A program made the translations under genes and the position numbers. A stretch of 64,000 bases of DNA from Cyanidioschyzon merolae (Eukaryota): the NCBI GenBank assembly GCA_000091205.1, contig AP006486.2; one strand, given 5' to 3'. The number at the start of each line of letters is the position of its first letter. Position 1 is the first letter of the stretch. Below the pieces are notes generated by a model. It made no database searches. It saw only the letters and a program-made list of their open reading frames with translations, and had not been told where the DNA came from. This document shows, one piece after another, positions 12,991-64,000 of the stretch.

Positions 12991-13152
12991 GGCGGGTCGC
13001 TCGCCATTACTGTACACTGGCGGCAGCGTTTTTCTTTTGAAAGGCGTTTGTTATCGCTGCCGTGGCCAAAAGAAACTTTTAAAAGCGATCACGAGGCTTG
13101 ACCAAGACCGCACAAAGGCGACGGCTTGTGAGCAACAACAGAGGTGCTCTTC

Positions 13153-20496: not shown

Positions 20497-20753
20497 ACAT
20501 TGTGCGTGCACTGCTAGAGGATATTATATGCGTGTCCAGCATTGTGCATGCACTGCTAGAGGATATTATATGCGTGTCCAGCTTTCTGCGTGCACTTCTA
20601 GAAGGATCATACATGCGTGTCCAGCTTTCTGCGTACAAATCTAGAAGGATCATACATGCGTGTCCAGCTTTCTGCGTACAAATCTAGAAGGATCATACAT
20701 GCGTGCTCAGCATTGTGCGTGCACTTCTAGAAGGATATTACATGCGTGTTCAG
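20497..20753. repeat. Minisatellite: about 6 tandem units of 42-43 bp in two subtypes
   Basis: Units cattgtgcgtgcactgctagaggatattatatgcgtgtccag (subtype A) and ctttctgcgtacaaatctagaaggatcatacatgcgtgtccag (subtype B), arranged A-A-B'-B-B-A'. Each unit contains two TGCGTG motifs. Confidence 0.8.
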
Positions 20754-28003: not shown

Positions 28004-28326
28004 CTTCCGGCGCTGATGGTGTCGTGTTCCCAGTAAGCAAGGTGAAAGGCAATGCAGTTCAGAGTTGAAACTTTTTCTCTACAATTCCGTCAGTGCAAAG
28101 CGAATGCTGTCCAGTGTTCAGCCTTGATGTTAGATATCCACACGCGTGACGCCTAGTCCTGATGGAGAGTCCACAGACAGTCAGAGCAGCGAACAATGTT
28201 TGCGATTTGCGAGGGTTCATGAGTACCCATGCCCAGACGCCTCCTAGTCATTTTTGACCGGTCGCCTGTTATCGGTTCCTGTGCTTATCCAGGTACGCTT
28301 CGGGCTTGAGAGGCTGTACCATAATG

Positions 28327-28551
28327 TTAGGTCGTCTTCAGCACCACACATCGTCTAATGTTGATAGCAGCGTTGAAGACTCGGTGGACAAAGTCCGTGC
28401 GTTTATTGCCGCGGCTTGGACTCATCCATTTAAGGATTGTTAGAACTCGTTCCTTCAGTGCGACTACAGTCTCGTCATCGTGCTGTCGGACAGGCGCCAA
28501 TTCCCGTGTATCTCCCCTTTTCTTGGTCCTCTTCGCGCGATGGTAGGCCAC
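28327..28551 (-). pseudogene. Short fragment of the TnpB/Fanzor-like family (copy c), holding the RuvC-III-like region and truncated by a stop
   Basis: Translates to ...ERVLTILKWMSPSRGNKRTDFVHRVFNAAINIRRCVVLKTT*, homologous to GLLALVSTTNDGKKRMEFVYRAFNAAINTRRYAVLETR of copy 1. Confidence 0.45.
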
Positions 28552-28843
28552 GAGAGGATTTTTTCATTTTTTGTCGAAACCGGGGATGACGGCTCTCCTG
28601 CATCCAGACGTCCATGTCTATACATTTCGCTTGGATTTTTAATTTCTCCAAATGAACGCACTTCGAAAACGTCTGCTATAAACTGCGACAAAGCATTTGA
28701 TGACATGCACCTGGATGCGGCGTAAAATTGAGGTGAAAGACAACAAGCAAAGTGTCCATAAAAGAAGGACAGCGTGTTTATCGTGCTGAACAGCTACGTT
28801 GCCTTTCCCAACCAGGATGATGAAACGTCTTCCACACGATCGC

Positions 28844-31420: not shown

Positions 31421-31463
<43 letters not shown>

Positions 31464-31466
31464 CGT
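31421..31466. repeat. (GCAC)n tetranucleotide microsatellite, about 11 units
   Basis: gcacgcacgcacgc... runs uninterrupted for about 45 nt in the divergent promoter region. Confidence 0.9.
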
Positions 31467-31706: not shown

Positions 31707-34184
31707 ATGTCGGGCAACGAACTTGAGAAACACGTCGCGAACTTGGCGCACCTACATAGTTATCGTAGCGAGGTTCTCAAAAAGAGCAAGCTTCCACAGC
31801 CAGCGAAGGGAATTGCACGGCGAGCGGCGTCTCACTTTGTTAACTGGCGCCAGCTGCATAACTACCGCAAGGAGCTCGAGGAGCAATATGCGGAGTTTGC
31901 AACCGATCCCCGTTACCAAGTCGACTCGGACGAATTCGACCCGCAAGCCTACACAGAAGTTGTAAGTGCACTCCAGAGCGCGCTTCTTCTCAAACCGCCT
32001 CAAATTGCTATTGCCTGGAAGAACCTGACGGTGAAAGTTCCGGTTGTGTACGGGCGCACGGGGATCGAGACTGTCGGTTCGAAAACACAGGAAGCCGTGC
32101 TCGCACTGCCACGCGTAGCGATCGATATTGGGAAATGGATCTGGACGGACGTTTTCCGACAAGGGCTCAACAAAGACGCACATCTAGAACCGATAGTCGA
32201 CGACGCTACTGGTGTCCTGCTTCCCGGAGAGACGCTGCTGGTGCTGGGCCCGCCGGGCTCCGGCACCAGCACGTTTCTGAATGTGCTCGCGCAACGCAGT
32301 CTGAAAGACTACGCTGCCATCACCGGAACAGTTGAGTACAATGGGTGCGATTTACACACGGCAGAGAAGCGAACGGTGCGCCCACTGCAGCATATCGTGC
32401 AGTTTGTCGAAGAGGCAGATACACACATCGCCTCGTTGACGGTACGCGATACGTTCCGGTTTGCAGCCGAGTGTCTGATACCAGACTTTTTCCCGTTCGC
32501 GGAGAAGGTGCGTCAAGATCGCGTGGAGCTTCTTATTAAGAATCTGGGATTAGAGCATTGTGCGGACACTGTAGTGGGTAATGAACTCTTACGGGGAGTC
32601 AGCGGTGGAGAAAAGAAGCGAGTGACGATCGGAGAGATGGCGGTGCGGCTTTCGTCGCAAATTTGGCTGCTCGATCAATGGACTCGCGGTCTTGATGCGG
32701 CAACCGCAATGGATTTGCAATATCGAGTTGCCGCTGTAGCCAAGCAGCGCAATATTACTGTCATTTCTGTGATGCAACAGCCAAGTCAAGAGATTTACGA
32801 TGCGTACGACAAGGTCTTGTTGATGGAGGCAGGCAAAGTGCTCTACTTTGGGCCGACCAATGAGGCAGAGCGATACTTCTTCAAGCTTGGTTATCGGCGG
32901 CCACGCAAACGGCTCATTCCTGAGTTCTTAGCGACCCTTGGCGACCCATTCGAGTCGAAACTTTGCATTCGGCCTGGATATGAGGATCGCGTGCCGCGGA
33001 CACCAGCGGAGTTCGCCGAGCGCTACCGCAATTCCTCGATCGCCAGGCGCTATCGAGAGATGGTGGAATCGCATTCCTATCTAACCGACGAGCAGCGCGA
33101 AGCATTCAACCAGGAACGTTATGTCGAGATAAGCAAGTTGTACGTTCGCAACTCGCTCCAACCTCGCTTGCGCCAGATGTTCATATGTTTGAATCGCGAA
33201 ATTCGAATGATCATCACGGCACCGTTCTCTTTCATCGTACGCTTCGCTCGTTATATCATTCTGGGTATCGTGGTCGGTGCGCTCTTCTTCGGGATCAATC
33301 ATGATCAACTGAGCGTTCGCGTTCGTGGCGGTCTTCTTTTCCTTGTCCTCCTAACCGTCGGTGTCGCTGGCTTTTCTTCTATTCAGCAAAACGCGGCTAC
33401 TCTGCAAATCATACGAAAACAGCGACGAGCAGGCTTCTATGAAATGCCACCATACTTTTTTGCGCTCTGGTTGATGGATATTCCGATTCAGTTCATCGAA
33501 GTGCTCATTTACTTGACGCTTGTCACGTACATGACGAAATTGCAGGGAGGTCCTCGATACGGTTTTGCGATCTTGATGGTGTGGTTAACCGGTATGGCAA
33601 CCAATACCTTGCTCAAATCGATTGGCTACGCAGCACCCTACACGGATATTGCGCTCGTGCTGGCGAGTTTGGTGATCATGCTCATGGTTCTGAGTGTGGG
33701 TTTCTTGGCTACCCCACCGAACATACCCGTGTATCTTCGTTGGATCTACTGGATCAATCCGTTTCACTATGCTTATGAGGCCATCATGCTGAATGAATTC
33801 GATGGCCTGTATTTCCACTGTACACCGAGCGAACTGCAGCCTGCGGGTGTACCGTCGGCCTATCAGGTGTGCCCGATCACGAACGGCATCAAGTATTTAC
33901 ACAGTCACTACAACTTTGCGTCTAACCCGTCATACAAATGGATTGACTTTGTCATCATCGTGGCGTACTATGTTGGATTCACCATCATAGCAGCTATTCT
34001 TCTGGTGCTCGTGCGTTGGCCACCGCGCCCCATGTACAAGAACGCCCGAGAAGTCGCCTGCGAGACGGATGTTCAGACATTTGTGGAAAGTCTCGAGCGG
34101 GAGGCCTCGTTATCGGATCGTCGGTCGCGAGAAGTATCGAATCCGTTCACAGATCGAAAAATATCGACGAATTCCAGACCGTAA
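31707..34184 (+). CDS. ABCG/PDR-type half transporter (NBD-TMD) matching the N-terminal half (NBD1-TMD1) of a full-size PDR pump
   Basis: Degenerate Walker A GPPGSGTST (Lys to Thr), canonical signature VSGGEKKRVTIGEMA and Pdr5-like degenerate Walker B LLDQWTRGLDAATA (Glu to Gln), then 6 TM helices. ATG at 31707 was verified. Confidence 0.85.
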   Translation: MSGNELEKHVANLAHLHSYRSEVLKKSKLPQPAKGIARRAASHFVNWRQLHNYRKELEEQYAEFATDPRYQVDSDEFDPQAYTEVVSALQSALLLKPPQIAIAWKNLTVKVPVVYGRTGIETVGSKTQEAVLALPRVAIDIGKWIWTDVFRQGLNKDAHLEPIVDDATGVLLPGETLLVLGPPGSGTSTFLNVLAQRSLKDYAAITGTVEYNGCDLHTAEKRTVRPLQHIVQFVEEADTHIASLTVRDTFRFAAECLIPDFFPFAEKVRQDRVELLIKNLGLEHCADTVVGNELLRGVSGGEKKRVTIGEMAVRLSSQIWLLDQWTRGLDAATAMDLQYRVAAVAKQRNITVISVMQQPSQEIYDAYDKVLLMEAGKVLYFGPTNEAERYFFKLGYRRPRKRLIPEFLATLGDPFESKLCIRPGYEDRVPRTPAEFAERYRNSSIARRYREMVESHSYLTDEQREAFNQERYVEISKLYVRNSLQPRLRQMFICLNREIRMIITAPFSFIVRFARYIILGIVVGALFFGINHDQLSVRVRGGLLFLVLLTVGVAGFSSIQQNAATLQIIRKQRRAGFYEMPPYFFALWLMDIPIQFIEVLIYLTLVTYMTKLQGGPRYGFAILMVWLTGMATNTLLKSIGYAAPYTDIALVLASLVIMLMVLSVGFLATPPNIPVYLRWIYWINPFHYAYEAIMLNEFDGLYFHCTPSELQPAGVPSAYQVCPITNGIKYLHSHYNFASNPSYKWIDFVIIVAYYVGFTIIAAILLVLVRWPPRPMYKNAREVACETDVQTFVESLEREASLSDRRSREVSNPFTDRKISTNSRP

Positions 34185-34715
34185 GTGCAGTGACATGGAC
34201 TCGGTGCCGATGCGCGAACCGCAGCGGATGACAGCAGCGTCGCTCTATGACATGGCATTGTGCTTCGTCTCTGGGTCCAGCGTTGGCGAAGTCAAGTCGG
34301 CGACGATTTCGTCGAGAACGTGACGGATGTTGTGCTTGTGTGCAAGCTTCAGATGTACTGGGCCTCGTGGTTACCAGCAGAACGCAGAGAGCGCTTGTAT
34401 GTTGGCGCTCCACAGCGCCGAGTGGATGAATCCGAAGGCTTTCGGGTGACGCAGCGGCGCCACTGGCGGCCGCCTTGAGCGTCATCGGCAGTAGGTACAC
34501 AACGCGGTGGGTGTCGTTGCAGCGCGCGAGGTTTTCTGATGGTAAACGCAGCACATAGTATGCGCCCTGGAGACTTGCTGGTGACCTGAAGCACCGCGTT
34601 GGCGATGTGGATGATCAAGAGTGGATAGACCATGCTTCAGCCGCGAGCAGCTGGTCCGTGTTTGATCCGCTCTGTATCGTTCAAACTCCATTGTTCTAGA
34701 CCGGTGGATGGCGAA

Positions 34716-35718
34716 TATTCTCTCTGAATTAGCGAATAACGGAAGACTACACTCGTTCACAAATTCCCTAGGAAAATACTTGCCAGTGTACATATATGCG
34801 GTGCTCTGGTTGTTCAGGTTCGCCGCACTGAACCGCTTCAGGGCGCTGAGCTAGGCGGGGATCCATTCCCGCTGCCCCTGGCATATGAGTCGCTATCGTC
34901 GACAGTTCCCCAGTGTTTAGGTGTCATGCCTATCTGGCGTACGAAGCGATGTTCGTGGTAGCTCGCTCCACAGAGCCTCTCGCGACGCTCTGGATGCACG
35001 ACACTTTGTCGGTTGTCGATCGAGACGTTCAAGCGTCGGTGCAGAGAACGCCTAGCGCCGTGCGCTACCAAGTCCACGACCCGACGTGTCGTTCATTTCC
35101 GTTCCCAAACCGGTGCAGAAGCTTTCTCTCGATTGCACGCTTCCTGGCTCCGGATGACCGAGACCGGGGCGACTCCAGCGCCGTCGTCATGGACGTCTGC
35201 CACGGGATGCTCGTGTGACCTCTCTGGAAGCTCCTGTACGGACTGCATGGAGCGTGCAAGGCATCCCGCGCTGCTCAGCCCGGTGCGTAGCGTGTCGGGT
35301 GAGCACCCGGCGCCTGCATGTTGCTTCTTTGTATGCCACGTGGCGTCCACAGCGCTCGACTTTCGAAGATTCCGGGCACAGGTCGAGCTGAGCAGCTCCG
35401 TCTGGTTTGCTGGTCAGGCGTTCGGCTCCGTGCTTTTGGTTGCTCCGTGTGCGGCGACAGCCGTGAAGCGCCTTACCCGCGGATAAACGCTGAAACCAGA
35501 ATCTTTTTCCTGGTCTACCTGGATCGGTTGAGAAAGAGTCTCGTTGCGCACCGCTGGGCGAGGCCTCACCAAGTGCATCCAGACTGATGGTTTGTCGCTC
35601 TGCATGCTCCCGCAGACCGTTCTTCATTTCCTGGGAGTAAACGAGAAACATGGAATGAGCGCAACAGACGCTGTTTGCGAATCTGTTCCAATGCATCGTC
35701 GTTTCTTGCCAAGACCAG
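34716..35718. repeat. Copy 1 of a dispersed/direct repeat about 1.0 kb long
   Basis: About 99% identical to 40064-41068 (about 8 mismatches per kb in the segments compared). It begins atattctctctgaattagcg and ends ttcttgccaagacca, with no recognisable coding domain. Confidence 0.8.
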
Positions 35719-38136
35719 CTGCAGCTCACAGAGAAGGCCGTACAGGCCGCTGCGCCAGTGTGTGGAGTACGCGAACAGGCATTTATGTAGGACAGGGGCA
35801 CCACATCGAATAGAAGCCCGCTGAGCATGTTATGCTGGCATACTATGAGCGCGTCCGCTTTAAGCTTGAGTGCTCTATTCATGAAAGCATATTCGCACAA
35901 ACTGTTGCGAAGCCGCGGCAGCCATGTCAGCTACCCTGCGGGTAAGGAGTCGAAAGATCCGTCATCCTGAGCAGCGCAATGAACTTGGAGAATTCGCTGC
36001 GAGTCTCGCTCTCATTGCGAGTTCTCTGTGGAACTCGGTACCTCCTCGATGTGTCGCGTTACCAGCGCGTCATTGACCCCCCATGGACACGCTCAGGAAT
36101 CCTTGCCATCAGTTCCCATTGTTCACGGTCAGCAGCGTATGCATATAATGCCCAGTGGGTGCGCCTCATAAAGCGCTTCGACACTGACCTGCTTATGCTT
36201 TTGGTCAGTGAAGCTGGATGGATACTTTTGGCAGCTGCCCTGTACCGCTTTTTTCGATCACCGACAAGACGCAGCGATGTGTCAAGGTATGCTCAGAGGC
36301 GTTTGCATGAGAATCTGATCCTCCGATCAGGCCGTCTTGTATCCCCTGTAACGAGAATCAGCTGTGCTGCTTCACAGAGGTCTGATCGAAGAATTCCAGG
36401 CGAATATGACCGGTTGGCAGCGCAGTGTCCAGAACTCCTCCGAAGACCTGCTCGGCGACATATGTGAAGACGAAAGCACCGAGGCGTTCATTCGTTGAAT
36501 TAGAAGCTGTACGATCTCGAATGTTTTTCCTGCATTGTTTCGTGTCATTGGTGCGAACAGCTCATCTACGGATCCGGAAGCGGAAAATTTGCATTCGACA
36601 TCATCGAATCAGAGAGAATATACGAGAACAATGTGCAGTTGAGCGCCAGTCCTAAACGTGTACTCCATTACTGCCATTCTATGACGTAACGCAATGTTTT
36701 CCATGAGCAGGACAGAATAATGTTCGAATGAGAAGCCACGAAGAATGGTTCAACGATAATGCGTTGGTATTGAAAGGGCCCGGGCTTTGGCCTTCTGAAC
36801 GCGACTCCATGAATAAATCGCCACTGGCGCCTATGTCGTGGTAAAACGCGCTTGTCTCTTCTCTTCGAAACAGCGCTCGATCGCCCTTCGAATATCTCTA
36901 CACAGGTGCGCAATTCTTCCCCAAAGAAACCTCATAGACAGAGACGAATACCCGTCGCTCCTGTACTTATCGCTCGCGTTTCAGTTCGAAATCGCTGGAG
37001 TGTTGTTCACAGCGTGACGAATTCGTGTAGCAGTGCGCTTTTTTACTCCATCCTTCCGTGTCTCTTCAACACCATTCATATCACTGATACGCCAAAATCA
37101 CATTTTATGGCCTCGTCGTCAGCATTCTTAGAGAATGTATGGAGTGGGACCGATTGACGGGGACACGGTTGTCTAGATACTGTTTGGTTTGGTGAGTTTC
37201 CGGCGCTCTACGTTCAGAGCGGGGATTTCGACGAGACTTGTGGTTCATCCACCAGCGAACCGTAGCATACGTGACTTGGAGAGACGAAAAAGTCTTTTCT
37301 CGCACGCTTGCAGTGACTGCATTCGCGCTTTTCGTGACCGTTCTTCAGTCTACGGGAAATCATTTCACTGACTACCCGCGAGAAAAGCAACCAAGAACAA
37401 AAGTGATCTGCTCGTATATCCAGTCTAAAAAGTACTTTTCTGTGTATAAAGCGGCCTGATTCGCTGGTACGATCATCCGCTCAAGTTTCTGCATGAAGCT
37501 TCCACAACGCAGTTTCGATACATGCATGGATGCTAGCCGCGGATGTGGGCACTGTAGACTCGGACAACTAACTGGCAGAGAGCGATCGAAAATCCTCTTT
37601 AAAGCAAGTGGGTGTATGGTGATGGTGCTTTCGATAAACTGCGCTGCAGGTTCAGCGAGGACGCCACAGGTACCGGTGACCGCTGACGCACCTCTTACCG
37701 AGCGGCAACATCTTGTGCCGCGTGCAGATACTTTGCTGGTGACGCTGGAGATTTCGCTCTGGTTCCTATTGAGTGAACGATACAACGCTTGCTTTTCAAT
37801 CCAAAAAGCAGGTCTATGGGAAATTCCAGCAGGTCTGGTTTTGAACCGTCATCCTAGTCCACTGCAGCATCGAGTTCCGCAATGTAATGGAGTATATCCT
37901 ATGCTTTCGCGTACGCAGATCGTGCCCTAGTCCAGAGACACTGGCCTGCTTCAACGGCCGTCCGTGGTGCGTCACAACCACAGCGGGAATATCGTTGCCG
38001 ACTATGTCCAGAACATAGCGTCCAGGGCTGGCCCGGGCACCCGTGCAAATCTGCTCCATTGCCATGATGCCACGCGCAACAACACTAGTGATGTAGAGCT
38101 CATAAAACGGTAGTGTATCGCCAGCGCATCCCTCTG

Positions 38137-38174
38137 ACACACACACTCTGTGTGTGTGTGTGTTTGTTTGTTTG
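38137..38174. repeat. Palindromic (CA)5-TC-(TG)7 microsatellite followed by (TTTG)3
   Basis: gacacacacactctgtgtgtgtgtgtgtttgtttgtttg; the CA and TG arms are reverse complements of each other, giving cruciform potential. Confidence 0.8.
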
Positions 38175-38351
38175 AAAAAGCTCCCTGTTCGGGCTACCAG
38201 AAACGAAACACGGTATGCTGCAGCCCCTGTGCTCACTGTGCATGGTTTCCTGGTCTCGAAACACGATTGTCTTCACTCGTATCGGGAGGCACGTGCAATG
38301 TGCATCGCAGTGCGTCTAGCCAAAGACCGTTCATGATGTCGCAGACGCTGG

Positions 38352-39737
38352 CTACTGGTGACCGCGACCAGGCCGGAACGTGGATCCAAAGTACATGAAC
38401 ATGTTGGCAAACGACTCGAGAATAGGATTATAGCCGCTTGGATTGGTAGCAGCATGTTTTCGCCACCATTCCTGTTGCGGGAGTAGCTCCTGGAGTCCAA
38501 TCCGCCGTTCTAATCGACGGTGTGCCCGCAACAGACGCGGAAACGACACAGAAAACATGATATCGTGCTCACCAGGCCTTACTGCTGGCCAGTCAACGGT
38601 CTGATCTTGGCCAAAAGTCTGAATAACGGGTGCAATTGTGGTACCACTAGCGGTCGGTAAACTGTCAGTGAAACAGGCAAAGTCGGCGATGAGCAAACTG
38701 TGACCTTGTGGGAAGGAGCGCGCTATGTTTCGCAGCAAGAGCGTAGCGTCAGTCGGTACATACGTCGGCCAGGATACATCCTCTGCGTCAAACGCTTCCG
38801 CTGGACCCGCATTCGTATTCATAGATGTACCTGCACGAACAGACGAGGGGATGACCCAGTCGTTCATCCGCCGAAACAAGCTGCGGATTTGTTCGATGGA
38901 GCGAACAATGCCACTGCCACGTCCTGCATACATCGAGGGTTCCGGCGGATCGCCCATCTTCGATGGAGTCTCTTCGGCCTCAAAATGAGGACCGAAGCCC
39001 CAGACCCGACACGCCTCAAGAATCAAATCGTCACGCAAAGGCTCGTACAGGAAGCGGCCTCTGCCGTCCACCAGGAGCTGATACCACTCACCGGTACGTC
39101 GATTTTGTACGATAGCATCGTGAGCTAAATTGTCCAGAACTTCTAGCGCTAGAACTGCAACCCGTGGCGGTTGCCCCGACTCGTATCGCTCGTGTGCTCT
39201 AGCTGCTGCTGCTGCTGCTGCTGCCGCCGCCTCGGGGTGCTCCAGCGGGATCGGCTCCTCCAGCGCTGATCGGTGATGGACGACACACCGCCCCGCATCA
39301 ATGTGCTCATAGAGTTGCTCGTGTTGGCGCATCACGAAGGGAGCGGAGATATCAACCGTGTGGTATGTCAACTTGGCATACTTTTCGGGAAACGAGTCCC
39401 GGAGATAGTTCAGAGCGTCAAGCGCGACGGTACCGTTCCCTGCGCCGACCTCCACAATCGTATCGTGGTCGTGCGTTACTGCCAGAAAGTGCGCTATCGT
39501 TCTCCCATAGTGAGGTGAGAAGAGCTCTGAGGGTGTCAGCCATGTTCGCGGTGCAGTAGCGTAAAGGTCGCGAACGTGTGCGTCCCACTCGGCGCGAGAC
39601 GCGAACTTGAGCTCTACGTTCTGCCCGCCGCGCGAAGATCGCCGAAGCGGCAGATCTGCCTCTTTTACCGGGTTAAAGTAACCACGTTTAGGACTGTAAA
39701 GGCATTCATAGATGAAGTTTCGTAGCAGAACCGACAT
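38352..39737 (-). CDS. DUF185/MidA (NDUFAF7-like) SAM-dependent methyltransferase
   Basis: YSPKRGYFNP, TPSELFSPHYGRTIAHFL and IVEVGAGNGTVALDAL motifs resemble the MidA/NDUFAF7 family. It contains a poly-Ala run (AAAAAAAAA) encoded by a (GCT/GCC)n repeat at 39202-39231. ATG was verified. Confidence 0.6.
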   Translation of the reverse strand: MSVLLRNFIYECLYSPKRGYFNPVKEADLPLRRSSRGGQNVELKFASRAEWDAHVRDLYATAPRTWLTPSELFSPHYGRTIAHFLAVTHDHDTIVEVGAGNGTVALDALNYLRDSFPEKYAKLTYHTVDISAPFVMRQHEQLYEHIDAGRCVVHHRSALEEPIPLEHPEAAAAAAAAAARAHERYESGQPPRVAVLALEVLDNLAHDAIVQNRRTGEWYQLLVDGRGRFLYEPLRDDLILEACRVWGFGPHFEAEETPSKMGDPPEPSMYAGRGSGIVRSIEQIRSLFRRMNDWVIPSSVRAGTSMNTNAGPAEAFDAEDVSWPTYVPTDATLLLRNIARSFPQGHSLLIADFACFTDSLPTASGTTIAPVIQTFGQDQTVDWPAVRPGEHDIMFSVSFPRLLRAHRRLERRIGLQELLPQQEWWRKHAATNPSGYNPILESFANMFMYFGSTFRPGRGHQ

Positions 39738-40063
39738 GCGGCGGAAAGCGCGGGCTTTGCCTTCCGACCTCTACCAGGTACGTCGAGAGCCTGGTACCAG
39801 GTTACAGCGTTAACGCGACCAGTTGCAACCTTTTGGCAAAGAAGGTGACTTGGATGAAAAGCTACAGACTAATTTCTTTCACCAAATAATACGTCCTAGA
39901 TACTGGGGTATCCTCTACGGATACCCAAGGGGAAGCAACAAGCGAGCGTCCCGGGCTATCTCTAGCACGAGCCGGTGACGTAGACGTGCCGCCGGGGCGC
40001 GCACCTTGCCCCCAGATACGTTGTTGGCGCTGTGGATCCCGATGCACGGCTCCATACGGAGAT

Positions 40064-41068
40064 ATTCTCTCTGAATTAGCGAATAACGGAAGACTACACT
40101 CGTTCACAAATTCCCTAGGAAAATACTTGCCAGTGTACATATATGCGGTGCTCTGGTTGTTCAGGTTCGCCGCACTGAACCGCTTCAGGGCGCTGAGCTA
40201 GGCGGGGATCCATTCCCGCTGCCCCTGGCATACGAGTCGCTATCGTCGACAGTTCCCCAGTGTTTAGGTGTCATGCCTATCTGGCGTACGAAGCGATGTT
40301 CGTGGTAGCTCGCTCCACAGAGCCTCTCGCGACGCTCTGGATGCACGACACTTTGTCGGTTGTCGATCGAGACGTTCAAGCGTCGGTGCAGAGAACGCCT
40401 AGCGCCGTGCGCTACCAAGTCCACGACCCGACGTGTCGTTCATTTCCGTTCCCAAACCGGTGCAGAGGCTTTCTCTTGATTGCACGCTTCCTGGCTCCGG
40501 ATGGCCGAGACCGGGGCGACTCCAGCGCCGTCGTCATGGACGTCTGCCACGGGATGCTCGTGTGACCTCTCTGGAAGCTCCTGTACGGACTGCATGGAGC
40601 GTGCAAGGCATCCCGCGCTGCTCGGCCCGGTGCGTAGCGTGTCGGGTGAGCACCCGGCGCCTGCATGTTGCTTCTTTGTATGCCACGTGGCGTCCACAGC
40701 GCTCGACTTTCGAAGATTCCGGGCACAGGTCGAGCTGAGCAGCTCCGTCTGGTTTGCTGGTCAGGCGTTCGGCTCCGTGCTTTTGGTTGCTCCGTGTGCG
40801 GCGACAGCCGTGAAGCGCCTTACCCGCGGATAAACGCTGAAACTAGAATCTTTTTCCTGGTCTACCTGGATCGGTTGAGAAAGAGTCTCGTTGCGCACCG
40901 CTGGGCGAGGCCTCACCAAGTGCATCCAGACTGATGGTTTGTCGCTCTGCATGCTCCCGCAGACCGTTCTTCATTTCCTGGGAGCAAACGAGAAACATGG
41001 AATGAGCGCCACAGACGCTGTTTGCGAATCTGTTCCAATGCATCGTCGTTTCTTGCCAAGACCAACCG
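40064..41068. repeat. Copy 2 of the 1.0-kb direct repeat
   Basis: About 99% identical to 34716-35718 and in the same orientation. The two copies are separated by 4.3 kb containing the NDUFAF7-like gene. Confidence 0.8.
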
Positions 41069-42136
41069 CTAAAAGAGCGGACGATATCCACTGGCAAGCA
41101 ATTCGATACCAGTGTCGTTCGGCCTTCATGATAACCGTTGGAAAGGAGGATACGATTTCCGTATCTTCCAACGTTTGCCTTCTATGCCGAAGTGCCCGTG
41201 TGCCGGACGAGTATGCTGGGCCAGTGCTGCATGCTGCCCCCAGGGGTGGGTGCAGTTGCGCCACCTGAACAACTCGCCCGCAATGCAGTTGATTCTCGGA
41301 TTCAGGGCAGTTCGGGTGTGTCTCGAAGTCGCCCAGGTTGCAGTTATCTCCTAGTACACCGCATCGCGCTGCCGCATGCAGTAGGTCTGTCTGCGCAGTT
41401 TGCAGGCGCCCAGAATGATGTAGAGTGCCGACCCCGTGTCGGATGAACGACGCCTCGAGCCGACATGCCCATTGGTATGGCAACGCTGCTCTGTCTTTGT
41501 ATTGCATCCGCACTTGCGGTATAAGCGCTACAACGGGTGCAGCACTGCATGCACTCGGCGCGAGAGATACCATAACAAACGACCAGTGTATCCTAAAGAA
41601 AGTATGGGCCATGGAACCTGAAGGTACAGTGCGTCATGATGAATACGTTCCCGAATGCCTATATCCCTCATTTGATCTTGGGTATACGTTCAATGTAAAC
41701 CTTTAGTCGAACAAAAAATGGAAACGCTGCATAGGTGAATGAATAACGCAACATCCGCTCAAACCGTGCTACTGGCCGGCCAGTCTCCTCCGGAACGCTC
41801 ACATCATTCTATCAAGAGAATAACGATTGTGAACACACACTCGCCATCGACGGGCTTCCAGTCTGGCTCAGCATGGTCCCGTTACCATAACCCAATCGTT
41901 GCGTCTGTGCTAGTTTTCAACTTTCACTTGTTCAGCGCGGTAGTTTTCTCAAAAAAGTGCGCCGTTTCCGCTACGCCGAGCAGTTGCGTCACTCTCAGAG
42001 AAAAACGGTCGCAAGTGTAGGCGAGGCGTTTGTAACTGGACCACGTGTCCGGGGAGTGTCTGGCACCTGGTCTGTGGGGCGACTCCCTCAAAAGCTACAG
42101 CGGAGTCAGCATCAAGACTGGTTGCGTGTCTCGAGG

Positions 42137-42967
42137 ATGCGACTTCGCAAACGTCCGCTGACCAGGGCATTGACTTGTATCAAGTCCGAAGACGCGCGAA
42201 ATGAGCGCTTAGGAAAGGCTGCAGGTGAGATAAATGAAAAACCTGCGCCAGAAGACAGCGATGCTAGCCCCAGCGTGAGGCAGGTTTACCAAGCACTCGT
42301 ACAGACGTACGGCGAACGCAACCGACGTCCAACCGGGCGAAGCGTTCTTGAGGCTCTCGTTCGTACGATCCTCTCCCAGAATACCACGGATAAGTTGTCA
42401 GGAGCTGCGTATCGGGCGCTTCGGTCTCGTTATAAGGACTGGGCGGACGTGCTGCATGCACCTGTCGGGGAGATTGAGGAAACCATTCGGATCGGAGGCC
42501 TTGCACGAACGAAGGCTCAACACATACAAGATATTCTGCGCGAACTTGAGCACAATGCAGCAACGACAGGCACCGACACTGACTGGACACAGGGTCTGGA
42601 GTTTCTCCGCAATGTACCCACCGCGCAAGTCATGGAATACTTGACCCGCTACCCAGGTGTCGGTCCAAAAACTGCCGCATGCGTGGCGATGTTCACCCTC
42701 GAACGCGATGATAGTTTTCCTGTGGATACGCATATCTTTAGACTGGCGAAGCGGCTCGGATGGGTACCGAATGGGCATACCCGGGAACAGGCTCAAGTAG
42801 ATTTAGAGAATCTGATACCAAGCACTCTCCACTACCCGATGCATATTCTGATGATTGAGCATGGGCGCAAGGTTTGCACTGCTCGGGGACCGCGATGCCA
42901 GCACTGTAAACTAGCAGGTCTGGGCTGCCCGAGTGCCACGCAAGATACAGAATCGACGCCCGTCTGA
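42137..42967 (+). CDS. Endonuclease III (Nth) family HhH-GPD DNA glycosylase with a 4Fe-4S cluster. The ORF is open from 41957; the first ATG is at 42137.
   Basis: LVRTILSQNTTDK, the HhH motif LTRYPGVGPKTAACV, a catalytic-region Asp (VDTHIFRLAKRLGW) and the C-terminal Cys cluster CTARGPRCQHCKLAGLGC. The N-terminus is Arg-rich. Confidence 0.8.
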   Translation: MRLRKRPLTRALTCIKSEDARNERLGKAAGEINEKPAPEDSDASPSVRQVYQALVQTYGERNRRPTGRSVLEALVRTILSQNTTDKLSGAAYRALRSRYKDWADVLHAPVGEIEETIRIGGLARTKAQHIQDILRELEHNAATTGTDTDWTQGLEFLRNVPTAQVMEYLTRYPGVGPKTAACVAMFTLERDDSFPVDTHIFRLAKRLGWVPNGHTREQAQVDLENLIPSTLHYPMHILMIEHGRKVCTARGPRCQHCKLAGLGCPSATQDTESTPV

Positions 42968-50607: not shown

Positions 50608-53600
50608 CTTGAGGGCGTCGAATCCCCAATCACATCATGCAGTTAGGTATTTGGCTGTTTTGTGCGTCGGTATTCTCGGTTCACGCATCATGGAGCATGC
50701 GGGTGACTGGAGGCTCGTGATACATTCGCATGTGTGCGCATGAAGACGTGTGGGCATTCGGACTTGCAGGATCGACGCAGACTCGCGTGCGTTGGTGGTA
50801 GCGGCTTTCATGGGATGCAGCATCATCGTATGGTGCCAAGCGAGCCATCTTCGTTTACATGAAGCGATCGTTGCATGGATGGATCGACAGGTGTCTGATA
50901 TTGGAAGCGGGCGACGAGCGGGCGCTCAATGTCCCGCAGGACTCCCGCTCGATGTCGATCTGTAGCTGGTGGATATCTCGCAGCCGCTAGCGTCCTGGGA
51001 GCTACAGACAGCGAGTATGGAGCTCGTGATCGGCTCGAGGGCAGGCGCGCCTGCCTCCGGTCGTGTCTAGCGGTCGCTGGGCGTATTCCATTCAAGTTCA
51101 GCGGAAACAGTGCCTCGGGGGTTGTTCTCCAAAGCTCTCTGAGTAAAAAAATCATCCATGGTCGTGCGTTCTTGATCGAATGGAATGGTGTTTGCACTGA
51201 TTCGTGATCTATGAAAGGCGTGTCCAGAAAACAGGACACGTCACAGGGCTGTGAACGGTTCCCACGTGAAAATACACAAGTTTCCGGGTATTGGAAAGTG
51301 CTGCGCAGACAGTCACCGTGATTCGTGAACGTCTCCAGAGAAGCATCTCGTTCGTGTGTCCGGGGCGAGAAGCTGCTTGGGCGCGCGACAGCATTTACGC
51401 TGACGCATGCGTGGCCAGAAGCGTCGATGTTCTTGGCTGAAATGCTCGGCACGAGTCGGGCTCAAGTCTGGCTCCCTCGATGCCAGGTCGAACGTTATGC
51501 GCAGAACGGGAAAATCTGGAACACCTGGACCAGCACGCCACGTTTGCCTTTCTTGAGGGTATTCAACGAAGGCGTGCATCCTGTAACTTAGAGAATGCCT
51601 GACGGCTTTCTTTACGATGCCATTGCTAGCTTGCGAATATCTGATCGAACTTGTACAAGTAAGGCATTCCATCGTCGGCAAATGGATGACCCATCGTTTG
51701 CGGCGTCCGCATACTCCATATCGTTCGCTCAGAACGGAACCAGTATAAATCTATTCACAGGATTGTGTGCTCGTCCATCGGAGCCAATCCATTGCTTTTC
51801 TAAGAACTACCACGGAATAAGCCATATGATGTGAAGTTTCCATATAGTAGAGACGACCAGTGATGCAGATACGAATGGACAAGTTAAGAAACACGCTAGT
51901 AGTCGCACTGGTCGCACGTTGAGCAACACACGATCGATTCCGTACTGAAACGCGAACAGTTTGGGCACGACAGACGGGTATTCATCTCGCTCGATGAGAT
52001 TCTATTCCGCAGAAATCGTACATCTGCGTGTGGATACTCAACGAGCGGCAATGCAATGTTTGCAAAGAAGACACAGGCGAGCTTCGCGACTCTACCAGGC
52101 CAAGCGGCGATGTCGACGGGTGTTCGCATACAAACCTTCAAACAAGAGGAGCGTTTCGCACTCGATGCGTCACCTAAGCAGTCTTCGTGCATTCGCCTTC
52201 CCACATTCTTCCGTCCTGCTCTGAGATAACGTCGCTTTCCATCAATCTACACGGTAACGGAGATCGTAGCTGAGACTGTTGGTAAGCGAAACTTGATGCC
52301 AGCCTATGCTCAGTGGTTTCATCCATCCGGGCGCGTCTTCTCTATCGTCAAACGCCATTTTTATGTTCGACGATCAATAGACGAGTCATTCGAATCTGGG
52401 ACCCCAAACTTCTTCGACAAGTCGTTCTCTAGCTCCACCAGCCCGCAACTGCGCAGTTGCTTCTCTGCTCGTGCGTGCTTGGGGGTGAAAGGCCAGCTCT
52501 GGTCCACGGGCGTGCTCCCGATGGAGGAAATGACGAAAAAATGCGAGGAGCTGTAGATATACACCCAGAAGAGGCGAGTCTCGGTGGCAAAGTCCACCCA
52601 GTGCGCACGGGCCGTGGCAAAAACGAACGGATATACCGTATACCGACCGCGTTCCTGCCAAACCGCCAAGTAAACGAGAAGAAGAAGAAACCTCCGCATC
52701 ATGAAGAGAAAGATCCTCCTAAAGACAGTACGAGCATTGAGAGAGGGCAAAAAGTGTGAGGCCAGAGGGATTCGTCAAATACCTCTGTCGAGGACGCTCT
52801 ACGAAAATCCATCGACGGGGAACGTTTCCCGGAAATGTGATACAGCAAGGCACCAGTGATCGTAGAGTCTTGTCCTGGAGGAATGCTCACGCAGCGCCTC
52901 TCGACTTGAAGCACCTGGTAATGCCATTGTCCATGCGCGTTCTGAACGCCGGGCTTCTAGCTGCCTGCGCTCCTCTGGATTTTTTCAATCAAACCGTTGT
53001 GCAATTTCTGATGCTGGGGATAGATATTGTGAGACGGACTGAGACGCTCAGGGCTCGATATGATCCCGAGTTGGACGTGGCAGACGCCACGGGACAAACC
53101 AGCGAATAGTAGGTCGGCACCAGGACCCGTGCCAATGCCCCGAACCCTGTCCTGGACAGAGGCGATGCTGCATACGCTTCATTCAGAGAGTACATGCGGG
53201 TCCAGATTTTTCGACCAGACGATCTTTGCTACAAGGACCGGAGAGCATGCTGGCGTCCTCAACAACCGATTCCGTTGCTCCATATCACGAGGCGGTCACT
53301 CGCCAACCTCTTCATTGAGATGAAGAACAACAGCACCGATGCGTCGCGTCGTTTGCTCGAGACCTCTGACGCGGCACGTTTCGGAGAGCGCAACAGCTTC
53401 ACGTTTGTCCCTTTGATGGACGGGTACAACGCGTGCAGGGATCGGTGCTGCACGATGCCCATTGATGGCTTCGGAGCGAGATTCACACATCTCGAGCGCA
53501 AACTGGCGCTGAAGCGGGCATCCAGGGAGAGCGTAAAGCAGCGACACATCCACGATGTGGTGTCCGGAAGCATGACCGAGCGTCAGCCTGCCACGAAATC

Positions 53601-57523: not shown

Positions 57524-57560
57524 CCCAGTGAGCCACGCTCTCCCCTGCACCGCACACCAA

Positions 57561-58350
57561 CAACGAACGCCTCAAAAGACAAAAGTTGCTGCAGGCAGTG
57601 TACAGTAGTGCGGAGAAACCCGCCCTAGACAACTCGTCGCCAACTGACTTGCAGACGCCTCCTGGTCTTTTCGGACCGGCCACCTACAACTGATTCCATC
57701 TTTTTCTCATATAATTCAACTTTTAGAAGTTGTCCCACAAAGTTCGCTCGTGTCGACGCTGGAGGTCTCGTCTCCAGCATCGCACTTTTCCTTATATGGA
57801 TTGCTGCGTTACAGCCTCGGTTCATAAACTCCATTCGTTTATTGCCGCTGGTGGAAGTCACCATTTTAAGGAGTCCTTGAAGTCGTGCCTTCCGTTCCAT
57901 TTCATTTGCTGTCACCTCACCGTACTTTTCTATATCTTCTAGGATTTGCTGGCTCTTCCCCGTCTCGGCCGTCTGAATTGTACGCCCCAGTTCATCCCAT
58001 AATATTTTAAAATCAAGGCACTGCTTTATGCATTTAGCTGAGGACATTCCCGGAGGAGATAGCACTTGCGCAGAAAGGACGACAGGTGCCCCGGTAGTGT
58101 TGTATGCTGAGCGCTTCAGCGATTCGCTCCATGCATCGATCGATACGTTTCACGATACAAAACACTCCCTCAATGGGGTAGACCAACGGAAACCACTAAA
58201 GAATGAAAACCAGCTCTATCCAGACAGAATCGGCAAGATCTCGAACGCAACAGGAATGATGAAATGCCAGTTTGTCCCGTAGAAGGACGTCGTTAGACGT
58301 CAGGGAAAAGGGACCCTTAATTCGACAACGTGGTTGAACCTGTTGTACGA
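57561..58350 (-). pseudogene. Diverged, stop-interrupted 3' portion of the TnpB/Fanzor-like family (copy d)
   Basis: Minus-strand translation ...FYGTN..PVAFEILPILSG*..FSGFRWSTPLRECF..*..SSAKCIKQC..KYGEVTANEMERKARLQGLLKMVTSTSGNKRMEFMNRGCNAAIHIRK..LETRPP..GGRSEKTRRRLQVSWRRVV*. A conserved tail follows the TAG (57561-57624). Confidence 0.5.
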
Positions 58351-59575
58351 GGCTGCTCTTCAAGTTCGATCTTATACACAACGGACTCTGATTGCTCGTG
58401 TACGCTCAGAGCGTTTCGTACGAGGCAAGTCGCATCGACTAAAAAAACAAACCGACGTCCTTGTGCTTCATATCCATAGTGACTTTCCAGGAGCTTTGTT
58501 GTAGTTGCTGTTTCTGTCGAAGATGGCCGTGTTTGGACTAGGACTTTTTTGCGACGATATGTCTCAGTGTTTTTGGGACCGCACGAACAGACTTCTGCGA
58601 AACAGAGACGCCGTTTGCGGCTACGATCATCGCTTTTCTTTGCTTCCCGTAAGGTGATCGACGAGTAGTTTTAAACCATGGACCGCAACCAGTCTCTAAG
58701 AAGATCGATTTTCGGTACGTAACTCAAATCCTGCTTCCTTCCCGTGCTCCTCGACCATCAGAGTACTGTGATATAACTGACGTGAAGGATGGATGCAGAC
58801 CTCGTTGCACTTTTCAGCAAAGAATATATCTTGTAGGCCATTCGTCTACGATATATGCGGCACGTTTCATCGATATTTCGATCCCTTACTATACACTGCG
58901 ACAAAGCATTCGAATACTCTCTCCGCGGGGACGAAACAGCATGTAGTAGAATGGCGATCCATCCAGCGGTGCGAATCGCACCGTCCACGAGTTGCGTTTA
59001 ACGTCCAGAGATCGAAAACTTGAAGAGTGTCTCTTTTGAGCATGCACCATAGAGGCAATGGAGAAGAATGTGTGCTTGCACGTATGCACTACCTCATGAT
59101 ATGGGTTCTATGTCGAACGCTTATTCGGATGCGTTGTGAATCACCATGATTTCGATGATGTACCGAGTTCCAGCGCAAAATATTCGATAGAATCGCTCTG
59201 GGAATCCGACCGAAAACCCTGACACTACACATGAACTCGTATGCCCCGGTCGCTGCACTTCGAATCCAGATGCTGTACACCAAAAAATAAAAGTGAAAAG
59301 AAATAGAAAGGTAGGCGCAGAACGAACACTTCAACAGACCACCTCCAGTTCGATACGACTACTGGTTTGCACCGACGCGCCTGTACGTCGCGTCACAGGT
59401 CGCAACGGATGACGCTTTGGGGTGGGCGTTCGCGCGTACCGCTCCCTAGAGCAAGAACGCGAATAAAACAGCTCCGAGTGTGAGGAGCTTCGGCTCTACC
59501 CGATAGACGCTGTGGTGCGAGATACGACTGCGCGATAGGGAACCTCCGGCGCCGGTGGAACGACGACGCTCGGGA

Positions 59576-61688: not shown

Positions 61689-64000
61689 TTCCAGTCAAAA
61701 CTTCAACGGTGATAGCGCAGGCTAAAAGCGCTCGTTCCCTTTGCAGAGGCCTCGCTGAGCGTCCGAACGCCAAGGTCAAGCGCTCGAGCGGGGATGGGGT
61801 ACGCTTCAAGCGCCGCGTCTGCGCTGCTCGTTTCATAAAAGGGTCAGTTGGATACCGGCAGGTTTCTGCTGCCACAGCCGAATACGTCACGATGTGCCTG
61901 AAACCTGTACGGACTCCAGGAAGGAAACGAGTGCTTTTTAGGATTAGAAATTAACTGCGGAGCTTTTGAATTGCGACAAAAACAGCACGACCAGGAAAAG
62001 CAGTTGACGTTGGGTTGCACGCTCGAACGTGTACAACCCGCGGACGATTCTGCTGAAGATGCGAACTGGGAACCGAATATCGAAGAATTATCTTTATTAT
62101 TAGGAAATGTTCAGGTTTCGCGAGATCAAGGCTAAGACAGCGTACCAGATTTACGCGTTGAGTTGATCTCACGAGTTGCCGGCAGCAGAGGTGTCTGAAT
62201 GAAGCAGCAACCTAGCGGTACGTTGGCCCGCGCTCCAGTGGGAACCCGGGACCCTGCAGCAGGCTGCGGACGCTTCCTCATGGTCATCGTGAACGTTTCT
62301 ACACGCTGAACGCTTTGAACAAGTGCATCGACGGTTGGTCGGAACACTTTGCGTCACGTCTGGTGGACGGCACCTCGCTATGCGCACAACGCTGCAACAG
62401 CGCAGTGTGTGCCAGCGTGTCGCTCACCAAAGATGCCTGGTAGTTGACGGCAGTGCTGCGTTTTGGCAGTGTCGTGCATCCTCGAAAGAAGAAGCGAAAG
62501 CGACAAACGTCCCTGATTCATGGCAGATGCTGTGGTATGGAATGGAGCCGGATGCAAGTTGCGACTGAACCGGCGATTCTATGCTCCTTTGACGTAAAGC
62601 AGAGCGTGTTGGAACACCTTTGCCAGAACGGACTTTCGGTTTGTGTTTTGTTTCACACAGGTATTCAAGAAATGGGTTGTATCCTGTAGATTGGAGAAAG
62701 GTCGCGCAAAGAGATTGTATGAAGTCATTGCGAGCTTGTGAAAAGAAACAGTTTTTCTCATACGAGTCAGTCGGTCCACGGTCAGCCGGCAGATGCGCTG
62801 CCCGGCCTCGTTGTCCTGGTTCTAAGCGCCGCGTACTCAAAACAGAAGTTATTCAACCCCATTTGCTTCGCTGTTTGGTCGACAATCCATTACAATCTGT
62901 CCGTTCCTTGAGGATTACTACTACTGGAGAATCAACAGAATAGGCCGTGTTCGCACCGCTGAAGCAAATGTTAATAAAAGAGCACCGATGGGCAAAGGAA
63001 GTGAAAGCATGCTTCACTGGGAGGTCATCGCGTGCTGACCAACATGCCGTTGATTTCGTACGAGGACACGAACGCTTCTGCTTTCAGGTACCAGGGGCGC
63101 GCTTCTCAATCGATCATGCTTGATCCGGGGAGAAATTGCGGACGTGCACATGGGTCATTAAAATGAGGTACAGCGCTGTACGTAAACAGAACACGAGCGG
63201 ATTCGACGATTCCATCAGACCGAGTGGCAATCGAATGTCGTGGTCGTGTACAAACTGACAAGCAGACACGATAGGTTCACACTTGATCCTTCATCGATGG
63301 AGGCTTCGTGAGCTCGCCTCCCTGAATTCTCTCCCCTGCTCGCAGACAATGTCACTTTACATCATTCAAAAGTGGTCACGGATTATGCATCCGGTATTTA
63401 CGAGGATCACCTCTTCATGCCATTGTATTTATCCTGTTCCATTCAGTCGGAGGTGTTATTTCTGTCGTTCAACGCCATTTTTACGCTCAAGGATCAATGA
63501 ACGAGTCGTTCGCACCAGAAACACTGAGGGATGTAGGACGCCATTACGCATAGCAAAGCCTATGATTCGAAGAAGGCTCGCCTTGCTTTCATCTTTTCAA
63601 CGCACCTCGTCAGGCAAATATTTCTCGTAGTTCCGCATACAGGGCTATCTACCGCCCGTATTCCTCAGGAATCTTTCGATCTAGCTTTCGTGCGACAGCA
63701 CAACTGATGCTCAGGAGAGAAGATGCAGTACAGGATGATCGCGTGATCAGAGATTTGCGCGCTTGCTTTTCAGAATACCTGGACTAGTTGCCGCACCACC
63801 TAGGCGGTCGGAGCATTTACCGCGCAGGTGCCGAGAAGCACCAAATCATCCGCCTATACCAAAAGCATACGCGGGTCATTCACCGGAGCTTCATGAAGCG
63901 CGCCTTGAGCGCGTTGTCGCTTCTCTCTACTGACCGAGAAAAGCGGGGTCGCATGAAAGGGATTCTCGGGATGTACGTGGAGGCAACAAAAACTGATTCT

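Follow-up and report, generated by a model that had tools for sequence, protein, structure and literature searches.

Two nearly identical 1-kb sequences lie in the same orientation on either side of a single methyltransferase gene in the nuclear genome of Cyanidioschyzon merolae, which is, to our knowledge, among the most repeat-poor eukaryotic genomes. Our literature searches found no description of this pair. This raises the question of what the two sequences are, how they came to flank the gene, and whether they still recombine with each other. We addressed it in a 64-kb window, which is the whole 64,000-nucleotide stretch of DNA that was analysed, together with metagenome contigs from related strains and species.

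The repeat pair and its surroundings

In a BLASTN self-comparison of the window, the left copy, R1 (34715-35717), aligned with the right copy, R2 (40062-41064), over 1003 bp at 99.2% identity, with eight mismatches, no gaps and the same orientation, and the pair was the single hit at such identity. This bears out an earlier note that had described 1.0-kb direct repeats of about 99% identity with about eight differences per kb; the coordinates given there (34716-35718 and 40064-41068) located the pair correctly, with exact ends that were one to four bases off. Base-by-base alignment placed the differences at 34886/40233, 35120/40467, 35130/40477, 35157/40504, 35277/40624, 35497/40844, 35638/40985 and 35663/41010, and seven of the eight are transitions. 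The edges are sharp, as identity drops at once to about 25% outside both ends. The repeat begins with ATATTC and finishes with GACCA; R1 is preceded by GGCGA and followed by GCTGC, and R2 by CGGAG and ACCGC. Its GC content is 57%, compared with 50-53% in the adjacent non-coding DNA. Neither the repeats nor the other non-coding features are assigned a strand.

The segment between the copies (35718-40061) measures 4344 bp, in agreement with the 4.3 kb reported earlier, and it carries, as reported, the MidA/NDUFAF7-like methyltransferase gene, a 461-aa open reading frame on the minus strand (38352-39737). The gene is identified by a match to Pfam PF02636 (Methyltransf_28, E=5e-28), by the identity of its protein to BAM79203.1 / XP_005535489.1 of C. 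merolae 10D, and by synteny in two related species. On the left, an ABCG half-transporter gene (31707-34184, plus strand; BAM79202.1) ends with its stop codon 531 bp before the start of R1; on the right lies a gene for an endonuclease III-like protein, Nth (42137-42967, plus strand; BAM79204.1). Both flanking genes were assigned by Pfam and exact look-up. The window belongs to the finished genome of strain 10D, as the three proteins match exactly the consecutive 10D accessions BAM79202, BAM79203 and BAM79204; the repeats and the spacers therefore contain no annotated gene. R2 sits in the divergent spacer between MidA and Nth, upstream of MidA, with its left edge 325 bp from the ATG; base-by-base and strain comparisons delimit a unique spacer of 324 bp (39738-40061) that separates R2 from the MidA start codon. 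The left part of the enclosed segment (35718-38351) comprises 2.6 kb of non-coding DNA with about 50% GC, no coding signal and no Pfam domain, and indels between strains are most numerous here. It includes a (TG)n microsatellite found by Tandem Repeats Finder (38149-38174) and a diverged dispersed-repeat fragment (36928-37166) with weak similarity (67%) to 51765-52001 in the window.

The related species indicate which parts of this arrangement are ancestral. MidA adjoins the ABCG gene both in a sister species with 78% MidA identity (contigs L006-L008) and in a more distant one with 64% MidA identity (L009), in each case with no flanking repeat and with much shorter spacers. This order, kept without the repeat, means that MidA is ancestral at this position and that the repeat was added around it. 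When the non-coding segments were compared with the syntenic loci of the two species by BLASTN at word size 7 and by TBLASTN, only the coding genes aligned. The spacer between MidA and Nth, after subtraction of R2, is about 1.4 kb long, compared with 1.48 kb in the sister species. From this comparison of lengths there is a weak hint that R2 may be the inserted copy, weak because spacer lengths are not conserved.

The earlier note had named two findings that would overturn its interpretation, namely that the unit belongs to a high-copy dispersed repeat or that the pair is an assembly artefact, and both are now excluded. First, two copies occur in the window, in which all other repeats are 66-89% identical. 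A 24-mer derived from the repeat matched at this locus only among 241 million metagenome records; the relatives of an open reading frame taken from the repeat, searched for among 5.8 billion proteins, were the same element only; and exact 24-27-mers had no match in viral contigs or prokaryotic genomes. Judged from these sequence searches, the repeat is a low-copy one, with two known copies and no dispersed high-copy family, and a third copy in 10D that is diverged or has lost its left end is possible. Second, short-read assemblies frequently break at the repeat edges (contigs L001, L002 and L012-L029), as might be expected if the pair were produced by duplication or collapse during assembly. 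However, the finished 10D genome (PMC1955436) holds the pair, with copies differing at eight positions, and the same order with identical junction sequences is repeated in six independent long metagenome contigs that are about 99% identical to the window (L003, L005, L010, L011, L020 and L021). The chance that the pair is an artefact is negligible.

Coding capacity, function and mobile-element features

The repeat does not look like a gene. The codon-usage score is at most 0.05 per codon over 34185-38351 and 39738-41956, compared with 0.10-0.26 in the training genes. Pfam searches of the individual open reading frames and, at E<=0.1, of all six frames of 34185-38351 found no domain, in keeping with the earlier observation that the repeats contain none that is recognisable. 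No exact-protein record was found for open reading frames within or across the repeat, which are thus unannotated as genes. Rfam gave no match at E<=1, and ARAGORN found no tRNA. Divergence between strains is 0.7-1.1% in the repeat, like that of other non-coding DNA, compared with 0.1-0.36% in coding sequence.

Considering that the sequence is non-coding, one may ask whether it is a functional element, such as a structured long RNA, a promoter or terminator module, or a chromatin boundary, of which both copies around MidA are kept by selection. The GC content of the repeat is coding-like and higher than that of its non-coding neighbours, no indel occurs in 16 sampled repeat copies compared with many in the adjoining non-coding DNA, and the folding z-score of the plus-strand RNA is -3.2 to -3.7, with scores of about 0 in five non-coding 1-kb windows nearby. 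In addition, R2 lies in a divergent promoter region. However, a control window in the ABCG coding sequence also scores z=-3.1, thus the folding signal is not distinctive; the repeat accumulates substitutions between strains at the non-coding rate given above; Rfam offers no family for it; and the syntenic locus in the sister species yielded no homologue. The GC content, the absence of indels and the folding score leave room for an unrecognised function, and there is no indication of a function of the repeat itself. We regard selection for such an element as quite unlikely.

The two copies could also be insertions of a non-autonomous mobile element, one to each side of MidA; candidates include a pair of solo LTRs, a TRIM- or LARD-like element, a Helitron fragment and a composite transposon. 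Direct orientation, an LTR-like length and sharp boundaries all suit such an origin. LTR retrotransposons have 5'-TG...CA-3' termini, a target-site duplication of 4-6 bp, and internal gag/pol or remnants of these; Helitrons have 5'-TC...CTRR-3' ends and a 3' hairpin and insert between A and T; and DNA transposons, MITEs and composite transposons have terminal inverted repeats together with a target-site duplication. The locus fits none of these descriptions. The repeat lacks TG..CA ends, and its termini do not fit the Helitron pattern on either strand. Both the inner and the outer flank pairs of R1 and R2 mismatch, and neither copy, nor the pair as a whole, is flanked by a target-site duplication. 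The unit is free of internal and terminal repeats, terminal inverted repeats included. The six-frame Pfam scan of 34185-38351 revealed no gag, pol or transposase remnant, and the sole gene in the interior is the syntenic host gene MidA. Sensitive BLASTN and TBLASTN comparisons of the repeat with the rest of the window, where several copies of dispersed repeats are present, produced no match inside the repeat, and neither the metagenome scan nor the protein search yielded extra copies. The absence of LTR hallmarks noted earlier (TG..CA, target-site duplication, gag/pol) is thereby confirmed by alignment and Pfam throughout. The non-autonomous element pair that had been offered as an alternative finds no terminal inverted repeats, no target-site duplication and no further copies in its favour, and it encloses an ancestral gene; we consider it very improbable.

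Proposed origin of the pair and probable exchange between the copies

A segmental duplication is defined by a length of at least 1 kb and an identity of at least 90% between the copies. R1 and R2 are 1003 bp long and 99.2% identical, low in copy number in the window and in the metagenome scan, and devoid of transposable-element structure and coding capacity. With two copies that are neither dispersed nor artefactual and that bear no element features, the segmental duplication suggested by the earlier note gains support. We therefore propose that R1 and R2 are probably a two-copy, locus-specific segmental duplication of 1003 bp of nuclear non-coding DNA, which is lineage-specific, evolves in concert, and is a possible substrate for deletion or excision.

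In the proposed sequence of events, one copy would have been pasted about 5.3 kb from the other, across the resident NDUFAF7/MidA gene, at a time when the lineage had already separated from the nearest sister species sampled and the present strains, which are about 1% apart, had yet to diversify. The copying was presumably achieved by repair or replication, that is, by templated double-strand-break repair or template switching, and not by transposition, because the edges are sharp and there is no target-site duplication and no terminal structure. We infer this mechanism from the missing hallmarks only, and no junction microhomology is evident in the base-by-base alignment. Later exchange by intrachromosomal or unequal homologous recombination, in the form of gene conversion, would then keep the copies about 99% identical.

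The strain data bear on this last step. Haplotypes at the repeat edges, anchored in the unique flanks, occur as ATC/AGG at the left edge and GCACA/GTACG at the right edge, and each is found in both the R1 and the R2 context; the right-edge haplotypes for the most part vary together within a strain. The two 10D copies share, at offsets 423 and 494, an allele that nearly all metagenome contigs lack in both copies, the exception being the partial R1 of contig L002, which has the 10D allele at offset 494. Because edge haplotypes are common to R1 and R2 and co-vary within strains, these patterns point to concerted evolution of the two copies by gene conversion, by which their high identity is probably maintained at least in part. 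All differences between R1 and R2 in the metagenome contigs lie at most 127 bp from an edge, and inside the repeat these contigs are probably a collapsed consensus; with a collapsed interior, the case for gene conversion rests on a few edge sites and two interior sites. The 0-4 differences per contig had been considered as strong evidence of homogenisation. They were dropped, as differences confined to the edges are the signature of a collapsed repeat, and only the flank-anchored edge haplotypes were used once the collapse was recognised. The earlier description of the segmental duplication as recent therefore needs a qualification: all sampled strains, at about 1% divergence, have the pair with identical boundaries, and its high identity is at least in part due to gene conversion.

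Recombination between the direct repeats would be predicted to delete 35718-41064 or to release a 5.35-kb circle with MidA and one repeat. Three contigs from two samples (L004, L030 and L031) show the repeat joined in a circle-like or tandem-like order. It is conceivable that the 5.35-kb unit, one repeat plus the MidA segment, also exists as an extrachromosomal circle or a tandem amplification arising by recombination between R1 and R2, or that the chromosome itself represents a Campbell-type integrated circle. Contig L004 (5342 bp) is a full circular permutation with a single repeat copy, in which window positions 38151-41064 are joined to 34715-38163, and no contig that links the ABCG-side flank to the repeat was found in its metagenome. 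L030 and L031, probably one sample processed by two pipelines, run from the final 52 bp to the left of R2 into the repeat, and from there into the first 85 bp after R1. However, both ends of L004 fall in the (TG)n microsatellite, and the assembled copies of its nearest strain, L003, match from offset 56 on, thus a short-read assembler could join the wrong exits. L030 opens with an Illumina adapter tail (CTTCCGATCT), and its reach of just 52 and 85 bp past the repeat is what a low-coverage contig sampling two of the four junctions by chance would show. Moreover, seven assemblies have the linear arrangement, and the synteny of MidA in the sister species speaks against an imported circle. The three contigs were accordingly downgraded as evidence for a circle, with the microsatellite ends of L004 and the adapter tail and very short flanks of L030 as the grounds; collapse of the repeat or low coverage accounts for them just as well. 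A circular or amplified unit is, in our view, unlikely, and it is similarly doubtful that in natural C. merolae populations recombination between R1 and R2 yields a 5.35-kb circle or a tandem array with MidA and one repeat, that the copy number of the locus varies, and that L004, L030 and L031 are real molecules. The earlier expectation that the configuration is prone to recombination gains indirect support, since the copies bear signs of exchange and pop-out between direct repeats has been published for C. merolae; an allele with the deletion did not come to light, and the contigs with a circle-like order can be read either way.

Comparison with known systems

As a model organism, C. merolae 10D is prized for its almost repeat-free finished genome and its very efficient homologous recombination. 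In this setting, the segmental duplication proposed here provides a small built-in test case in a red alga, in which gene conversion and the spontaneous recombination of direct repeats could be measured. There are practical consequences as well: short-read assemblies break at the locus, and variant calls or gene-targeting constructs in this region could be confounded. Beyond these uses, the pair is an ordinary structural feature.

The closest counterparts are the segmental duplications or low-copy repeats of human, yeast and other organisms, which undergo interlocus gene conversion and non-allelic homologous recombination. R1 and R2 resemble them in a length of at least 1 kb, more than 90% identity and the absence of transposable-element features, and likewise form two direct copies that lie a few kb from each other with a single-copy gene between them and that show signs of evolving in concert. 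Recombination would be predicted to have the same outcome, either a deletion together with a circle or a duplication. In contrast, R1 and R2 are very short (1 kb), wholly non-coding, located in a repeat-poor genome, and known without a rearranged allele.

LTR retrotransposons, solo LTRs and TRIMs share with our pair the direct repeats of LTR-like size around a few kb. They differ in having TG..CA termini, a target-site duplication, a primer-binding site, a polypurine tract and gag/pol, all lacking here, where an ancestral host gene occupies the interior and no other copies were found.

The same geometry has been engineered in 10D itself. Experiments in this strain have demonstrated that short direct repeats recombine (PMC8504449; PMC13353863), and there are pop-out cassettes in which URA5.3 or CAT-HSVtk is placed between duplicated terminators (Takemura et al. 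2018, via PMC8504449; PMC13353863). In these cassettes, two direct repeats likewise surround a gene on a C. merolae chromosome, and intrachromosomal homologous recombination removes it. R1 and R2, unlike the cassettes, are natural, and no pop-out was observed; they enclose a gene for a conserved assembly factor of mitochondrial complex I, and loss of MidA/NDUFAF7 is probably selected against.

Finally, C. merolae has an interspersed repetitive element of its own, with 253 copies averaging about 3.2 kb and a truncated WSV486-like open reading frame (Nozaki et al. 2007, PMC1955436). It is, like R1 and R2, non-genic repeated intergenic DNA, and the enclosed segment itself contains the diverged dispersed-repeat fragment described above. 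The two are nevertheless distinct: R1 and R2 are dissimilar to the dispersed repeats in the window, and they stand at 99% identity compared with 66-82%, and at two copies compared with hundreds.

Structure and coding content of the repeat pair

When the window is compared with itself by BLASTN, its single near-perfect internal match is a pair of 1003-bp copies in direct orientation, R1 (34715-35717) and R2 (40062-41064), with 99.2% identity, 8 mismatches (7 of them transitions) and no gaps. A dedicated repeat finder also seeds this match. An earlier note had described these repeats accurately, apart from coordinates that were 1-4 bases off. Base by base, the 100% identity gives way at either end, over a single base, to the random level, and the other repeats in the window are far more diverged (66-89% identity). 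The two copies are separated by 4344 bp (35718-40061).

The ORFs of the window are long and without introns, at a GC content of about 54%. The enclosed segment holds an ORF of 461 aa on the minus strand (38352-39737), which matches PF02636 (MidA/NDUFAF7-type methyltransferase; MidA below) and is identical to BAM79203.1 / XP_005535489.1 of C. merolae strain 10D. The ABCG half-transporter ORF to the left (31707-34184) and the endonuclease III (Nth) ORF to the right (42137-42967) are identical to BAM79202.1 and BAM79204.1. All three proteins belong to one 513,455-bp record and their accessions are consecutive; thus, the reference annotation has no gene in R1, R2 or the spacers. The window is thus part of the 10D nuclear genome, which has been finished end to end (PMC1955436). 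Within MidA, a (GCT)n tract (39202-39224) encodes a poly-alanine run whose length differs between strains: it is one alanine shorter in a 460-aa variant (P0009), and L001, a metagenome contig, carries the 10D protein unchanged.

In a codon-usage log-odds model whose training set was the clear genes of the window, the score does not exceed 0.05 per codon anywhere in 34185-38351 or 39738-41956, compared with 0.10-0.26 inside genes. No Pfam domain was found in ORFs touching the repeats or in six frames of 34185-38351, and among 5.8 billion proteins the only relative of the longest ORF running through the repeat was the same element (98% identity). Searches of the repeat with Rfam (E<=1) and for tRNAs returned no known RNA, and no internal direct repeats, terminal inverted repeats or tandem repeats were found within it. 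Its termini are 5'-ATATTC...GACCA-3', and the flanks read GGCGA|R1|GCTGC and CGGAG|R2|ACCGC; therefore, there is no target-site duplication at either copy or around the pair. We also considered an LTR element, a DNA transposon or MITE, a Helitron and the 253-copy C. merolae interspersed element (Nozaki et al., PMC1955436), and the pair resembled none of them in any feature tested.

The remainder of the window, several diverged dispersed-repeat copies included, gave no match within the repeat in sensitive BLASTN and TBLASTN searches, which did locate an old dispersed-repeat fragment in the enclosed segment (36928-37166). The dispersed repeats form two sets with 66-82% identity, are intergenic, lie in both orientations and are unrelated to the 1-kb pair (4835-6013, 8601-9118, 12546-13052, 28234-28659, 51765-52392, 57555-58897 and 63240-63512, besides the fragment just named). 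They may be copies of the interspersed element, which is roughly 3.2 kb long and present in 253 copies (PMC1955436). Tandem repeats comprise a 43-bp unit in 5.9 copies with 89% matches, intergenic and downstream of an ABCC gene (20503-20753), a tandem pair of a 75-bp unit with 84% identity (11928-12077) and a perfect (GCAC)11 microsatellite (31421-31465) in the spacer that separates two divergent ABCG genes and differs more between strains (3.3%) than any other segment.

Relatives and age of the duplication

In a sister species with 78% MidA identity (contigs L006-L008, including NCBI assembly GCA_041825655.1), the gene order is that of the window (RPL27a, Nth, MidA, ABCG, ABCG, ABCC) and no repeat flanks MidA. 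The ABCG-MidA spacer measures 1135 bp in the sister species compared with 4168 bp in the window, and the MidA-Nth spacer about 1480 bp compared with about 2400 bp. About 2 kb of the ABCG-MidA excess (34185-38351 against L006 11338-12473) is neither repeat nor recognisable gene. In a more distant relative (L009, 64% identity), from a Rio Tinto metagenome (PMC11052175), MidA likewise adjoins ABCG without repeats. MidA is therefore ancestral at this position, and it was in the C. merolae lineage that the repeat copies came to surround it, which argues against a composite element that imported MidA. Only coding sequence aligns between the species, and thus either copy may be the older. The duplication postdates the split from the sister species and predates that of the sampled strains.

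Metagenome strains and exchange between the copies

Four metagenome contigs, all of which map to the MidA locus, contained a 24-mer taken from the repeat's left end, and look-ups of MidA protein variants yielded 20 further contigs. Different assemblies supplied six long contigs that have both copies (L003, from a 96-kb contig; L005, 62 kb; L010, 65 kb; L011, 11.6 kb; L020, 73 kb; L021, 82 kb), and in all of them the order, spacing (5325-5350 bp) and junctions are those of the window, with an overall identity of about 99%. One or more of these six metagenomes came from Yellowstone (PMC8986864), a site of abundant C. merolae (PMC13353863). Numerous short contigs stop 123-164 bp inside the repeat, as expected of a repeat that breaks short-read assembly. 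Together, the long contigs and this break pattern rule out an assembly artefact, one of two findings that would have refuted the earlier note; the other, a dispersed high-copy family, is ruled out within the limits of an exact 24-mer search. The boundaries of the repeat are identical in all strains sampled.

The metagenome strains (L002 and the six above) are about 99% identical over tens of kilobases to 10D, an Italian isolate. In the short metagenome contig L016, an unrelated, coding-like 692 bp (1-692), found at no other locus, replaces all sequence upstream of a junction at 39946, 115 bp before R2; this may reflect either chimeric assembly or a rearrangement beside the repeat that is specific to one strain. 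Local duplications or jumps of 56-64 bp relative to the window in L024 (3474-3529; ~37582/37828-37883) and L015 (1-64; ~40880-40968) are probably assembly artefacts at contig ends.

Divergence between 10D and L003 is 0.11-0.36% in coding and 0.57-3.3% in non-coding sequence; R1 (1.1%) and R2 (0.7%) fall within the latter range, and the repeat therefore drifts like non-coding DNA. Within metagenome contigs, R1 and R2 differ at only 0-4 sites, none of them farther than 127 bp from a repeat edge; the repeat interiors in these contigs are therefore probably collapsed consensus and were left out as evidence. Edge haplotypes are anchored in unique flanks, and hence informative. Haplotypes are common to both copies: at the left edge (offsets 37/55/107 within the repeat), ATC occurs in R1 of 10D and in R2 of 10D, L010, L015 and L017, and AGG in R1 of five strains and R2 of most; at the right edge (offsets 880-950), GCACA and GTACG each occur in R1 and in R2, mostly co-varying within strains. 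Offsets 423 and 494 are A and T in both 10D copies, and G and C in both copies of nearly every metagenome contig, the single exception being a T at 494 in the partial R1 of L002. Without exchange, such sharing would need repeated parallel mutations, and we conclude that R1 and R2 evolve in concert via gene conversion or unequal exchange. Their 99% identity therefore gives no date for the duplication.

Recombination, function and class

No deletion allele (ABCG-side flank, one repeat, Nth-side flank) was present among the contigs fetched. This would be explained if, as is plausible, selection acts against losing the complex I assembly factor NDUFAF7. The reciprocal order is shown by three contigs. 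First, L004 (5342 bp) is a full circular permutation, with 38151-41064 joined to 34715-38163 and both ends in a (TG)n microsatellite (38149-38174); the closest strain to it is L003, in which the two assembled copies have the same sequence from offset 56 to the end. Second, L030 and L031 (1.15 kb), probably one sample processed by two assembly pipelines, run from 52 bp of pre-R2 sequence through the repeat into 85 bp of the sequence that follows R1. L030 starts with an Illumina adapter tail and is therefore a low-coverage contig, in which two of the four junctions were perhaps sampled by chance. A circle or a tandem array of the unit would fit all three contigs; however, a collapsed repeat accounts for them equally well, and we consider the circle or array improbable.

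It is also conceivable that the repeat is a functional element. Its GC content is 57%, compared with 50-53% in adjoining non-coding DNA; the 16 sampled copies contain no indels; and on folding, its plus strand outscores shuffled controls (z=-3.2 to -3.7), with z near 0 in five neighbouring non-coding windows. However, an ABCG coding window also reaches a folding z of -3.1, substitution proceeds at the neutral rate and there is no conserved counterpart, making function, in our judgement, improbable.

R1 and R2 are a direct repeat that is non-coding, specific to the lineage, present in two copies and placed around an ancestral gene. We propose that the pair was created by copying during repair or replication, for example by templated break repair or template switching, because the hallmarks of transposition are absent, and that gene conversion has since maintained its identity. 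Of the origins suggested by the earlier note, segmental duplication stands and an element pair does not; the duplication is not necessarily recent, as its identity would be maintained by exchange. A literature search found no published description of the pair. The pair is chiefly of use as a natural reporter, in a model red alga, for gene conversion and for recombination between direct repeats, and the locus calls for caution in assembly and gene targeting.

The two copies are probably able to undergo direct-repeat recombination. Indeed, two papers describe 10D markers flanked by duplicated terminators that were lost by intrachromosomal homologous recombination (PMC8504449, PMC13353863), and these engineered constructs give experimental backing for such a capacity. 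The pair has the usual characteristics of a segmental duplication, or low-copy repeat, and is a further example of this well-known kind of feature rather than a new kind.
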